Below are positions 58,046-64,000 of a stretch of DNA of 64,000 bases, piece by piece. Source of the DNA: Escherichia coli (GTDB lineage Bacteria; Pseudomonadota; Gammaproteobacteria; Enterobacterales; Enterobacteriaceae); assembly GCF_001677475.2 (NCBI RefSeq), contig NZ_CP015229.1, one strand, 5' to 3'. A program made the translations under genes and the position numbers. The notes below the pieces were generated by a model. That model did not search any database. It was not told the DNA's origin and worked only from the letters and a program-made list of their open reading frames with translations. How positions within the stretch are numbered: the stretch's first letter is position 1; each line of letters opens with the position of its first letter.

Positions 58046-58333
58046 GCAAACAAACCCTGGACAAACAGGTGATAACACCCTGCTTAGCGGCTTTTCAGGC
58101 CCAGCAGGGGAAAAGTGCGGAGGTAGTCAGATAAGTAAAATCTACACGCGCGAATAAGTAGACCACAGCAAAGGGAAAAAGTGTGGGGAAAGAGTGTGCA
58201 TGAAGCACAAATTTACAAAAATGCAAGTTTGAAAAGAGACTTTCATTAATTGAACGCTTAAAAGGGCCAGTTAAACGAACCCTTCAGAGAAAAAAGGTTC
58301 AGATTACCTACATCAGGCCTGAACTAATACGGA

Positions 58334-58864
58334 TCATTCATACTCGACAGAAAAGTTGACCAATGCATTTGCAGTGCCGGATGTTGCATTGGCATTCACC
58401 ACCACATAACTTGCGACGTAATGAAGTTGAGATGTTACACCAGTCACCGGCCACTCGATTGCCCCCCCACCACTTACTTTCGGAATTTGTTGTGTGCCCT
58501 TGCTATCCACAATTTTAAGGGCAACACCTATTGCTCCTCCCGAATCCAGGGAAAAAAGCGAGGAATCATTCGTATCAGGAATACCGTCCATTGTGACTTT
58601 TGCCTTAATAGTGCCATCACAATCTTTCAAGTCGATCACAAAACCCTGTTCGTTTAAGACCCTTCCAACCGAAACCGGTTTCATCAGCGTCATTTTCCCC
58701 ATATCAACTTCCAGATCAGATGACTCAAACTCACATCCTTTTGCCACAACAGCAAGAGAGAATGTCAGCTTTCCTACCTCACCCAGGCTGGTTTTGGCTT
58801 CTACATTGATACAGCTTGTCAGGGCTAAAAGCGGAAATAAAATGAGCAATATATTCCTTCGCAT
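58334..58864 (-). CDS. lpfE: Fimbrial minor subunit, 176 aa
   Basis: Signal peptide (MRRNILLILFPLLALTSCINVEA) and fimbrial-subunit-like C-terminus ending ...ALVNFSVEYE; last gene of the operon. Confidence 0.75.
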   Translation of the reverse strand: MRRNILLILFPLLALTSCINVEAKTSLGEVGKLTFSLAVVAKGCEFESSDLEVDMGKMTLMKPVSVGRVLNEQGFVIDLKDCDGTIKAKVTMDGIPDTNDSSLFSLDSGGAIGVALKIVDSKGTQQIPKVSGGGAIEWPVTGVTSQLHYVASYVVVNANATSGTANALVNFSVEYE

Positions 58865-58869
58865 TGCTA

Positions 58870-59925
58870 TTACTCCATATCCAGAAAAATCGTCGCAACA
58901 CCACTGTATTGTCCGGTCGCAGGAGCATTTCCTGTCGTGCTAATGGGTTCCGCTTTTAACTTAACTGTCGCGGCGCGATGCTGTTGGGAATCATTCTGAC
59001 CCAGAGTTAAGTTTGTGCTACTATTTGCATCATTAGGCTTCAGAATATTACCGTTTGTATCCTTCACCAATACACCAATATCCGGGTTCCCCATATCGAT
59101 AGCCCGAGAATCAGCCTGGTTTGATGTGCCTTCAATCCTTAGAGAAACCTGAATTCCATTAGCAATATTCTCACAATCAAACTGGAGAGCAATTTCTTTC
59201 TCCGTTCCACCGTCTGGCATAGCACCTCGTTTATTTTTAAATGCGGAAGGTGAAAATTCACCAAAAGGGACATCCAGCACAGTTCCCGCATTAATTTCAC
59301 AACCTTGTGAGAAACGTAATTTACCTGCAATACTGACGGTAGAAAGTGGGTCTCTATAGGTATTTTTTTTCTTTGAAGCATATAATGTTGCAATTTGTGT
59401 ATAGGGTATTTCAGCTTCACCCTGAATAGGTTTTGCAATATAAAAAGACAGATAACCATCGCTACCAAACTGGCCTAAATTTTTTCCCACACAATCTTGA
59501 GATGCGTTATTTAAATTAGGAACCGGTGCATTATTCGCTGGCACAGCGATATACATACTTGGCCCTTGAATCATTGTCATCACTTCCAGTTCTTCGGTTA
59601 ACCGGTAGTATTGCTCACTGTTTATTTTTCGCGTTGCCGTAGATAAGTTACTCACGGTTTTAATTAGTGTCTCCTTTTCCGTTTTATAAGTATCAGGGCA
59701 CTCACAAATAAAGCTAAAAGGCTGCCCAACACCAGCCCATGAGTAAAGTAATCTTAATAAAGTACCCGCTTTATTTTTGCTGGCATCCATAATATCAATA
59801 TCAAATTTGACTGGGTAATCATGAACCCCTGAAGTCGATGTACATGGTCCCCAATCAGCAGCTATCGCATTATTAGCTGAAAACATTATAATTGCTGAAA
59901 AGAATAGCTTTAATATTGTCATCAT
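58870..59925 (-). CDS. lpfD: Fimbrial tip adhesin-like subunit, 351 aa
   Basis: Signal peptide, two-domain size typical of tip adhesins, C-terminal pilin-like strand (...GVATIFLDME). Confidence 0.75.
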   Translation of the reverse strand: MMTILKLFFSAIIMFSANNAIAADWGPCTSTSGVHDYPVKFDIDIMDASKNKAGTLLRLLYSWAGVGQPFSFICECPDTYKTEKETLIKTVSNLSTATRKINSEQYYRLTEELEVMTMIQGPSMYIAVPANNAPVPNLNNASQDCVGKNLGQFGSDGYLSFYIAKPIQGEAEIPYTQIATLYASKKKNTYRDPLSTVSIAGKLRFSQGCEINAGTVLDVPFGEFSPSAFKNKRGAMPDGGTEKEIALQFDCENIANGIQVSLRIEGTSNQADSRAIDMGNPDIGVLVKDTNGNILKPNDANSSTNLTLGQNDSQQHRAATVKLKAEPISTTGNAPATGQYSGVATIFLDME

Positions 59926-59940
59926 CTTATCCCTCCCTGG

Positions 59941-62526: not shown

Positions 62527-62539
62527 TCCCCTGAAAATA

Positions 62540-63226
62540 TTAACGAATATCTCTGGTCAACAGTTCACCTGATGACCCAAAATCATTAATGATGTTATAT
62601 TTTATTTGTGACACCTCATTTACTCCGGCGGGTAAATTAATGTTCAATGAACCTTTTGCAGGCACCATACCGGATTTTTCAATTTCGTGACCATTAACAA
62701 AAAGCTGGTTAAATGTAAGATTATAAACGGATGGATTATCTACTTTTATTTGATTACCGCTTCGTGTAAAACGCATCTCACCGGGAGCAGACTTAATATC
62801 CCCCTTTAGCCCTTCCGGACGATAAAAAAGTTTTACACGTGTACGTACTGCAATTTGCAGCACATTTTTACCTTCACTATCATCACTTTTTGAGGGGATC
62901 GCTTTAACATTTACCCAGTAAACTGATTCACGATCCTGAGGTAATGATTGATTAACATTTACAATACGAAGGATATTGTTTTTTTCAGGATCGAGTTTAA
63001 ATAATGGTGGAGTAATGATAAAAGGTGTTTTTTTGTTGCCAGCAGCATCATCAACCCATGACTGGATAAGGAATTCTTCTTTTTTGCTTTTATTTTGTAC
63101 TGTCAGAGAGGCTTCTTTCTTGCTGCCGTCATAAATCACCCGAGTAGAACTAAGCCCAACCCCACTCGCTAGTACAGACTGCGAAATTAACACCAAAAGA
63201 GTTAACGCAATGAGTTTTCTTTTCAT
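62540..63226 (-). CDS. lpfB: Periplasmic fimbrial chaperone (PapD-like), about 228 aa
   Basis: Signal peptide MKRKLIALTLLVLISQSVLA then PapD-like sequence; start placed at the ATG at 63224-63226 (an adjacent ATG at 63227-63229 is equally possible). Confidence 0.8.
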   Translation of the reverse strand: MKRKLIALTLLVLISQSVLASGVGLSSTRVIYDGSKKEASLTVQNKSKKEEFLIQSWVDDAAGNKKTPFIITPPLFKLDPEKNNILRIVNVNQSLPQDRESVYWVNVKAIPSKSDDSEGKNVLQIAVRTRVKLFYRPEGLKGDIKSAPGEMRFTRSGNQIKVDNPSVYNLTFNQLFVNGHEIEKSGMVPAKGSLNINLPAGVNEVSQIKYNIINDFGSSGELLTRDIR

Positions 63227-63293
63227 CATTCTATCCATGAACGTTGACCACAATTGGCGGAGAATTTATCTTCGCCAATTGTGAAACTAACTA

Positions 63294-63818
63294 TTACTCG
63301 TAAGACAGATTGAAATCAACCTGAGCATTACCATAACCAGTAGTTACAGCAGCTAAAGTAGAAACATAGTTTGCGGTGAAATAAAGAACTGTCTGACCTT
63401 TTTTCAGGTCAGTGCTGGATTCACCACTATTCATCGCAACCAGGGTGTTGCTGTTATCATAAATACCGATACCGACGCCTTTCGCCGCGCCTGCTTCGGT
63501 GCTAACAGAGATAAGTTCAGGTTTATCGGTATCACCAACGCCACTAAAGCTGACTTTCGCCTTTTTCAAAGTGGTGATATCACAATCTTCCAACTTGATT
63601 TCGAAAGGTTTTGATGGTGATTTATCACCAACTGCAGCAAACACAGATTTTTGAACCTGTCCCAGAACAACTTCCTGGTTCTGAGAATCAACAGACAGTA
63701 CGCATGCTGCGTCTACGATCTCACCAGTAAATTTAACAGTACCATCACCAGAATCAGCAGCGAAGACAGAACCAGAAGTTAATGCCAGTGCAGACAAGGC
63801 AAAAATAACCTTTTTCAT
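63294..63818 (-). CDS. lpfA: Major fimbrial subunit, 174 aa
   Basis: Protein MKKVIFALSALALTSGSVFAADSGDGTVKFTGEIVDAACV... ending ...AQVDFNLSYE; signal peptide, conserved Cys pair, C-terminal donor strand. Confidence 0.85.
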   Translation of the reverse strand: MKKVIFALSALALTSGSVFAADSGDGTVKFTGEIVDAACVLSVDSQNQEVVLGQVQKSVFAAVGDKSPSKPFEIKLEDCDITTLKKAKVSFSGVGDTDKPELISVSTEAGAAKGVGIGIYDNSNTLVAMNSGESSTDLKKGQTVLYFTANYVSTLAAVTTGYGNAQVDFNLSYE

Positions 63819-64000
63819 GAAAAACTCCATTTAAAAAAACACAATAAATAGCAAATATTGATGATTCAGAAAAGCATCAATTTTGAGGGCTGGATTATAC
63901 GAATAAATGTGAAAAAAGAAATTAAATACATAAAATGCTAATAGTGAGACATTTTATGAAATGTAGTTATAATCATATGGTTACGCCTTAGCATAAAAAG

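Follow-up and report, generated by a model that had tools for sequence, protein, structure and literature searches.

A complete lpf1 fimbrial operon of Escherichia coli with the apparent structure of a three-part mosaic, in which an EPEC-type lpfA adjoins a chaperone, usher and adhesin resembling those of cryptic Escherichia species

The Lpf fimbriae are among the few colonisation factors outside the enterocyte effacement locus (LEE) that have been studied in enterohaemorrhagic (EHEC), enteropathogenic (EPEC) and adherent-invasive Escherichia coli (AIEC), and alleles of lpfA, the gene of the major subunit, serve as diagnostic and lineage markers (PMC3417533, PMC5357955). The lpf1 operon of O157:H7 (lpfABCC'DE, OI-141) has been the system for studies of adhesion and M-cell interaction (PMC5357955), and the primers for the lpfA1-1 allele were designed on E2348/69, a strain of EPEC O127:H6 (PMC3417533). 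The only solved LpfD, PDB 5AFO, is that of AIEC LF82. Fimbriae of this type are found at an identical locus in Escherichia and Salmonella and were judged ancestral (Wurpel et al. 2013, PMC3559732). Here, we examine the lpf1 locus at the end of a 64,000-nucleotide stretch of E. coli DNA (assembly GCF_001677475.2, contig NZ_CP015229.1), which is called the window throughout; coordinates are positions in this whole window, and the reasoning draws on its sequence together with comparison with public genomes. The locus is very probably an intact lpf1 operon in the OI-141 slot, of the "Lpf-like" type of Wurpel et al. and the counterpart of Salmonella lpf, assembled by recombination from three segments.

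The operon comprises five genes, all on the minus strand and in the five-gene order of lpf1 (major subunit, chaperone, usher, adhesin, minor subunit): lpfA for the major fimbrial subunit (63294-63818; 174 amino acids, or 178 from an upstream ATG at 63830), lpfB for the periplasmic chaperone (62540-63226; 228 amino acids from the annotated start, 237 in the longest open reading frame), lpfC for the outer-membrane usher (59941-62517; 858 amino acids, or 861 in the longest open reading frame, which starts at 62526), lpfD for a two-domain tip adhesin (58870-59925; 351 amino acids) and lpfE for a minor pilin (58334-58864; 176 amino acids). The gaps between them, from lpfA to lpfE, are 67, 22, 15 and 5 bp. 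Slot and gene order are shared with the lpf1 operons of E2348/69 and O157:H7, the latter belonging to the same family, and with the lpf operons of E. marmotae and E. whittamii (cryptic clades V and II).

Sliding identity profiles, a maximum chi-square breakpoint and per-segment identities together point to an operon that is a mosaic of three parts. Segment 1, which runs from about 63140 to the yhjX junction and covers lpfA together with its promoter and the opening ~30 codons of lpfB, is 96-100% identical in nucleotides to E2348/69 (99-100% across lpfA and the junction), as against 74-87% to E. marmotae over most of its length. Segment 2 (about 58690-63125), which takes in what remains of lpfB, all of lpfC and lpfD and the 5' third of lpfE, is 93-99% identical to E. 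marmotae and E. whittamii, compared with 70-86% to E2348/69 and 47-82% to O157:H7. Segment 3 (58334-58685), the 3' two-thirds of lpfE, has no match above ~82% among the sequences sampled. In the two cryptic species the nucleotide identity reaches 95.9-96.5% in lpfB after the junction, 96.7-96.9% in lpfC, 93-94% in lpfD and 96% in 5' lpfE, whereas it is 84% in lpfA (91% in the protein), 81-82% in 3' lpfE and 75% in the neighbouring eptB. E2348/69 differs in the opposite sense, in that its promoter and yhjX junction match the window (~97% over the spacer, 99-100% at the yhjX junction) while identity is 70-86% from lpfB codon ~30 on and the eptB-lpfE spacer is unrelated.

Recombination breakpoint 1 was placed at 63125..63140 (no strand) with a chi-square of 598. 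On its left (lower) side, E. marmotae alone is matched at 874 sites and E2348/69 alone at 104, whereas on the right (higher) side E2348/69 alone is matched at 171 sites and E. marmotae alone at nine. The breakpoint lies where mature LpfB begins, in codons 29-34, within a stretch conserved among all alleles; LpfB is itself chimeric, with a signal peptide and first mature residues of the E2348/69 type and a remainder of the E. marmotae type. A further change lies within lpfE, where identity to E. marmotae drops from 96% over the first 175 nt to 81-82% over the remainder. When a donor of this 3' segment was sought among 5.8 billion proteins, nothing closer than 85% was found outside the allele's own six-member cluster, and the nearest LpfE cluster, at that 85%, is of the E. 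marmotae type. The 3' end of lpfE would come from an unsampled source.

The encoded proteins follow the same division. LpfA is 100% identical to that of E2348/69, compared with 90.8% for E. marmotae and 88.5% for O157:H7. For the proteins beyond the breakpoint, identities to E. marmotae, E2348/69 and O157:H7 are, respectively, 92.1, 82.0 and 79.8% in LpfB, 97.7, 86.8 and 76.5% in LpfC, 90.9, 79.8 and 49.9% in LpfD, and 86.4, 73.9 and 55.9% in LpfE. The adhesin differs from that of E. marmotae at 32 residues, and these are unevenly distributed: the N-terminal receptor domain is 89% identical, the pilin domain 95.5%, and there is a cluster of differences at residues 123-134.

The allele alignment suggested in an earlier note on this stretch, which was made from its letters alone, assigns the marker gene to lpfA1-1 in the typing scheme of Torres et al. 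Over lpfA the nucleotide identity to E2348/69 is 99.8%, and the published lpfA1-1 primers match exactly, giving a 389-bp amplicon at 63412-63800. The lpfA-yhjX spacer is likewise 96.8% identical to E2348/69, compared with 68.5% to O157:H7. The operon as a whole is not of the E2348/69 type, as shown by the 70-86% identity of lpfB to lpfE past the breakpoint. The apparently recombinant nature of the operon escaped the earlier note: judged by these alignments, only lpfA is E2348/69-like, and the usher and adhesin represent a type seen elsewhere in cryptic Escherichia species.

The genes appear complete by every comparison made. The five co-oriented lpfABCDE-type genes named in the earlier note were borne out, with their roles, by the open reading frames, NCBIfam and Pfam. 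LpfA, LpfB, LpfC and LpfE score above the equivalog cut-offs of their NCBIfam models (339.8 against 221 bits, 419.3 against 360, 1657 against 1271 and 243 against 169, respectively). In Pfam, PF00419 (Fimbrial) is present in LpfA, LpfD and LpfE, PF00345 and PF02753 (PapD_N and PapD_C) in LpfB, and PF13954, PF00577 and PF13953 (PapC_N, Usher and PapC_C) in LpfC, which together make up a classical chaperone-usher system. Signal peptides are present at the N-termini of the proteins, the cysteine pair and C-terminal motif expected of pilins are in place, and Shine-Dalgarno sequences are visible ahead of lpfA, lpfC and lpfD. The usher was correctly described as undisrupted with 861 amino acids, being a single open frame that aligns to positions 1-842 of the 842 of the LpfC model. 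In O157:H7, by contrast, lpfC is a RefSeq pseudogene with an internal stop at codon 368, seen in both annotation and translation, and the frame comparison thus agrees with the split named in the earlier note; PMC2941450 also lists Torres 2002 under a title that supports a split into lpfC and lpfC'. As a side observation, the O157-like operon of strain TB06051 has an intact usher, and lpfB is annotated as frameshifted in the E2348/69-type operon of strain A25 (L001:10207-10894). On this evidence, the region reads as a complete, apparently functional copy of the E. coli lpf1 operon at its usual chromosomal site.

Several candidate regulatory features accompany the genes, all on the minus strand. 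The region upstream of lpfA (63819..64000), which is cut by the window end, is very AT-rich, and the full lpfA-yhjX spacer of 347 bp has a G+C content (GC) of 26.8%. Between lpfA and lpfB, RNAfold predicts a strong RNA hairpin at 63248..63284 with a 12+3 bp stem (-23 kcal/mol for the 77-nt intergenic RNA), a candidate attenuator or stabiliser that may set how much major subunit is made relative to the assembly proteins. A candidate intrinsic terminator 3' of lpfE (58290..58324), consisting of a hairpin and then a U-run found by folding, may end transcription of the operon. A consensus scan for promoters and terminators returned no more sites than it did in shuffled sequence, and listed neither the lpfE terminator candidate nor the lpfA-lpfB hairpin.

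By analogy with other chaperone-usher systems, transcription would start in the 27%-GC region upstream of lpfA, probably silenced by H-NS in laboratory conditions, and such silencing, which the earlier note had proposed, is plausible from that low GC; control by H-NS and Ler has been shown for O157:H7 lpf1 in work cited in PMC5357955. LpfA, LpfD and LpfE would be exported by Sec, LpfB would capture the subunits by donor-strand complementation and hand them over to LpfC, and LpfC would polymerise the fibre by donor-strand exchange, with LpfA as the shaft and LpfD at the tip. LpfE is probably an adaptor, as the gene order D-E is like that of Salmonella fimH-fimF. It was also observed that the LpfE signal peptide (58789-58864) holds a lipobox-like L-T-S-C, which is the same in the E. 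marmotae type, reads L-V-A-C or L-A-A-C in the O157 and Pseudocitrobacter types, and is missing from the E2348/69 and A22 types; the motif may be a coincidence, since a normal signal peptidase I site (VEA|K) comes after it.

The same assembly logic and domain families are found in type 1 fimbriae (fim), and the second-best hidden Markov model (HMM) matches of the window proteins are FimA, FimC, FimD, FimH and FimI/FimF. The scores are far below the Fim cut-offs, however, and the gene order and chromosomal position are different, and the locus is without the fimB/fimE invertible switch. With the LpfD of LF82 and of the A22 type, whose operon is in the same slot, the window LpfD shares full-length homology, conserved cysteines and the two-domain layout, although it is only ~38-40% identical to it, and therefore the binding properties of LF82 LpfD are not transferable to the window protein.

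Some observations weigh against this picture of a functional recombinant lpf1 operon. The LpfD score against the NCBIfam LpfD model, 310.3 bits, lies under the cut-off of 412, although the model is the best match by far, the next one reaching 103 bits. The adaptor role of LpfE comes from gene order and a weak HMM similarity to FimI/FimF, and assembly and function of the fimbriae are likewise predictions from genes alone. The precedent for H-NS control concerns the O157:H7 promoter, which is only 68.5% identical to that of the window. Lpf in EPEC appeared unnecessary for adherence and for the formation of A/E (attaching and effacing) lesions, according to a review that cites Tatsuno et al. 2006 (PMC5156508), and this bears on the window because its promoter and major subunit are of the E2348/69 type. 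Finally, which way lpfA was exchanged and which species donated the backbone are tentative deductions from parsimony and synonymous divergence (dS). With regard to LpfD, RefSeq names the E2348/69 and O157:H7 proteins only "fimbrial protein", and the A22 (LF82-type) protein is the only E. coli type here that is named LpfD, which suggests that the NCBIfam model is tuned to the Salmonella/LF82-like type. Moreover, the window protein is homologous over its full length to 5AFO (E = 1.2e-65, query 23-350 against chain 1-325), whose sequence is identical to the A22-type LpfD.

An operon that is intact by sequence could still be silent, a cryptic fimbrial locus heading for decay. The 26.8% GC of the promoter region is typical of H-NS-silenced loci, relatives show decay in the form of the O157:H7 usher stop and the A25 lpfB frameshift, and the apparent dispensability of Lpf for EPEC adherence points in the same direction; furthermore, ~90% of complete E. 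coli genomes are without a match to the window lpfD-lpfE, since a distant search found matches in 553 of 5,426. We nevertheless regard this reading as rather unlikely. All five genes are intact in every carrier contig examined, and the slot has kept lpf across four genera. The ratios of nonsynonymous to synonymous divergence (dN/dS) relative to E. marmotae are well below 1, at ~0.10 for lpfC (0.011/0.112) and ~0.30 for lpfD (0.047/0.157), indicating purifying selection. In addition, a part in interactions with M cells and Peyer's patches is documented for Lpf both in O157:H7 and in AIEC LF82 (PMC5357955, PMC7008151).

Synonymous divergence gives relative ages to the parts of the mosaic. Between the window and E2348/69, dS is 0.008 in lpfA, as against 0.24 in eptB and 0.26 in yhjX on the flanks, and therefore the lpfA patch was shared recently. 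Between the window and E. marmotae, lpfC (0.11) and lpfD (0.16) lie below the flanking dppA (0.27) and yhjX (0.55), and therefore the backbone shares an ancestor with the operons of the cryptic clades that postdates the separation of the species. The allele classes, in turn, greatly predate E. coli, as follows from the saturated dS of 1.36 between lpfC of the window and of E2348/69, compared with a core dS of 0.1-0.26 within E. coli. In the most parsimonious order, a resident clade-type operon would recently have taken up, by homologous recombination, a lpfA1-1 patch of ~1.2 kb that reaches from the promoter through lpfA to codon ~30 of lpfB.

The likeness of lpfB-lpfE to E. marmotae and E. 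whittamii could instead be a trans-species polymorphism kept by descent, with no exchange after the species split. Such an explanation would draw on the great age of the allele classes relative to the species, on the ancestral slot (PMC3559732) and on the lack of mobility genes or repeats. It is improbable in view of the dS values of lpfC and lpfD just given, which are lower than those of dppA and yhjX. The same pattern recurs between E. marmotae and E. whittamii (0.04-0.07 for lpfA-C and lpfE and 0.15 for lpfD, with flanks at 0.30-0.54) and between the O157-type lpfC and that of Pseudocitrobacter (0.20, with flanks at 1.1-2.3). Low dS in lpf relative to the flanks indicates a common ancestry younger than the species or genus splits.

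The relative from Pseudocitrobacter deserves a description of its own. The closest relative of the O157:H7-type lpf1 operons (L005, and L022 from TB06051) lies in the yhjX-eptB slot of a Pseudocitrobacter metagenome-assembled genome (MAG; CAJYVI010000071.1, L023:5109-10583). The lpfC genes are 95.0% identical in nucleotides and the LpfC proteins 97.0%, while the flanks are 80% (yhjX, dS 1.1) and 73% (eptB, dS 2.3) identical. This likeness points to inter-genus sharing of the OI-141 allele, with the caveat that the source is a single MAG. For each E. coli lpf1 class examined, the nearest relative is an operon at that same position in a genome other than E. coli, namely E. marmotae/E. whittamii for the window backbone and Pseudocitrobacter for the O157:H7 type.

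As is usual for lpf1, the operon lies between yhjX and eptB (yhjW). In K-12, as the earlier note had stated, yhjX and eptB are directly adjacent and there is no lpf. The same slot is used in E. coli by the E2348/69 type, the O157 type, the Salmonella/LF82-like type of A22, the window type and TB06051, and beyond E. coli by the lpf operons of E. marmotae and E. whittamii. Protein look-ups further revealed the Salmonella and Enterobacter contexts: the arrangement is yhjY-lpf-eptB in Salmonella enterica, where yhjX is absent, and yhjX-lpf-eptB-dpp in Enterobacter asburiae. The slot is also occupied by lpf in the Pseudocitrobacter MAG. A scan of the GTDB species representatives with an LpfD alignment, made with two narrow peptide patterns only, returned one locus (Pseudocitrobacter) and is not readable as a species distribution. 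An ancestral presence of lpf is argued for by this positional conservation across genera together with the judgement in PMC3559732.

The block was delimited by comparison with K-12, as the earlier note had proposed, and runs from 58275 to ~64172 (~5.9 kb, in place of 104 bp of K-12 sequence), with 58275..64000 inside the window on the minus strand. K-12 homology stops at 58274, inside the hairpin of the K-12 yhjX terminator. The far boundary was read on a public E. coli contig (GCA_018683435.1, locus L004), which is 100% identical to window positions 56147-64000 and continues past the window end. On it, K-12 homology begins again at virtual coordinate 64173, within the final three codons of yhjX, and the far boundary thus lies 172 bp past the window end. 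The window itself ends 170 bp upstream of lpfA as counted from the ATG at 63830, in agreement with the earlier note, or 182 bp from the annotated ATG at 63818. The C-terminus of YhjX reads ...MLREAHI* in lpf carriers and ...MLREAHGSL* in K-12. On the other side, the junction differs by allele class: homology to K-12 (L006:7477-7830) ends at 7491 in E2348/69, 7659 in O157, 7674 in the window and E. marmotae, and 7705 in A22, and therefore each lpf1 class brings its own lpfE-eptB spacer. The 104 bp of the empty K-12 site match no lpf-type locus and hold no recognisable lpf remnant. This sequence was considered as a scar that might give evidence of a deletion and was set aside on the same grounds; whether K-12 lost lpf or never had it is not settled by the scar.

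The earlier note had described the operon as inserted upstream of eptB. The position and the absence from K-12 stand, while the wording of an insertion is misleading for a slot that is ancient and shared by other genera. From the alignments, the situation seems better described as an ancient slot with polymorphism of presence or absence and of allele class, kept up by homologous recombination through the conserved flanks. The idea of an old acquisition was right, and the locus, being found in the same slot across genera (PMC3559732), is older than was supposed.

A recent genomic island, which a mobile element would have carried into a vacant K-12-like site upstream of eptB and which is what "inserted" means when taken literally, is a very doubtful account of the block and already largely refuted. 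Its low GC relative to the flanks would suit such an origin: the lpf block has 42.4% GC, compared with 51.1% in the rest of the window, in agreement with the AT-richness seen earlier, and third codon positions have 28-42% GC, as against 57% in eptB. The block is also missing from K-12 and most E. coli, and a tRNA gene, proK for tRNA-Pro(CGG), is nearby at 56186-56262. However, proK is separated from the block by eptB, the conserved flank (56354-58045, minus strand), which encodes a Kdo2-lipid A phosphoethanolamine transferase of 563 amino acids (574 in the longest open reading frame; PRK11560 in NCBIfam, 1158 bits). The block junctions show no direct or inverted repeats of at least 8 bp, and neither integrase, transposase nor insertion sequence is present within the 64-kb window, as the earlier note had also found for integrases and insertion sequences. 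The window is collinear with K-12, at 98.35% identity over 45 kb, outside three differences: the lpf block, the chuY-chuU-chuV end of a heme-uptake locus (1-2501) and a small ldr/rdl repeat difference. With no mobility genes, junction repeats or tRNA insertion, low GC is the only property of an integrase-mobilised island found here. Furthermore, the slot is occupied in four genera, and an eptB-side junction that varies by allele class is unexpected for site-specific integration.

The hybrid allele is rare among complete genomes and recurrent elsewhere. In a set of 5,426 complete RefSeq E. coli genomes, no full-length match to the operon exceeds 82.1% identity, the value reached by E2348/69 and its relatives, 77 genomes cover at least 80% of the operon query, and a sensitive search found none with lpfD-lpfE above 78% identity; the lpfDE type is absent from this set. 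Identical LpfD and LpfE proteins are on record in E. coli, in 53 contigs each, and their 90%-identity cluster also has members from unclassified Escherichia, E. marmotae and E. whittamii. An identical LpfA comes from strain A25, a carrier of the E2348/69-type operon. The same hybrid, with all five genes intact, was found in six further carrier contigs (L003, L004 and L014-L017; five assemblies and one metagenome scaffold). That the mosaic is an assembly chimera is scarcely credible: hybrid junctions can arise by mis-assembly of similar alleles, and nothing specific favours this here, whereas the same hybrid stands in the window and the six further contigs, five of them at least 99.4% identical to L004 in every lpf segment, and each genome has one lpf1 slot and so no second allele to mis-join. 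A pure clade-type parent operon was also sought in E. coli and none was found, every E. coli carrier examined being the same hybrid.

The surroundings of the operon offer further observations. The best identity to any of the complete genomes is 97.6% for the dpp-eptB region, 98.5% for the bcs region and 99.0% for the chu end, and therefore the strain comes from a lineage that no complete genome represents in RefSeq. A host other than E. coli was considered in view of these values and set aside, because the window is collinear with K-12 at 98.35% identity over 45 kb and the carrier assemblies bear the E. coli label. Of the sequences compared, O157:H7 comes nearest to the eptB and yhjX flanks (97-100% in patches; eptB 97.6% in nucleotides). 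The eptB genes of E. marmotae (L007:10945-12636) and E. whittamii (L010:10931-12622) are only 74-75% identical in nucleotides to that of the window, with dN 0.14 and dS ~2, and EptB of E. marmotae has 80% protein identity to that of E. coli, while the nearby dppA and yhjX are 95% and 89% identical in nucleotides; in one lineage eptB seems to have been replaced by a highly divergent allele. At the other end of the window, positions 1-2501 hold chuY, chuU and the heme-ABC ATPase end of the chu/shu locus beside yhiD, where K-12 has slp-dctR, and therefore the host belongs to a chuA-positive E. coli lineage and not to phylogroup A or B1. Around ldrD/rdlD (~47543-47622), breaks and overlaps in the K-12 alignment suggest a different copy number of the ldr/rdl toxin-antisense repeat. 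As well, an imperfect direct repeat of 134 bp (55904-56036 and 56071-56204; 91.8% identity, period 167 bp) lies 3' of proK and overlaps its last 19 nt; the spacer has the same length in K-12 and is 167 bp shorter, presumably with a single copy, in E2348/69, A25 and O157:H7. An old att-like scar is one possible origin of this repeat, and polymorphism of a repeat element is another.

Beyond the mosaic, the system is a standard and well-understood chaperone-usher operon: lpf1 is already known, and what seems new is the hybrid allele with its three-way structure, since no description of it, of lpf mosaicism or of exchange with cryptic Escherichia was found in the searchable literature. Taken together, the comparisons lead us to think, with modest confidence, that the yhjX-eptB slot is a site of allele exchange across species and genera, where recombination within the operon can uncouple the lpfA typing target from lpfD. 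The marker gene lpfA and the adhesin gene lpfD can thus differ in history. Since the operon types as lpfA1-1 and yet encodes an LpfD with 80% identity to its E2348/69 counterpart and 91% to the E. marmotae protein, it is unsafe to infer adhesin type or tropism from lpfA alone. Typing can also fall short in the cryptic species, for E. marmotae carries a full lpf operon despite a VirulenceFinder-based survey in which cryptic species, including E. marmotae, were reported as lpfA-negative (PMC9088250). If the mosaic is true, a strain scored as "lpfA1-1, EPEC-like" by polymerase chain reaction or VirulenceFinder may carry another adhesin, possibly with another receptor or host specificity, and the locus would be a tangible case of fimbrial genes passing between E. 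coli and cryptic Escherichia species.

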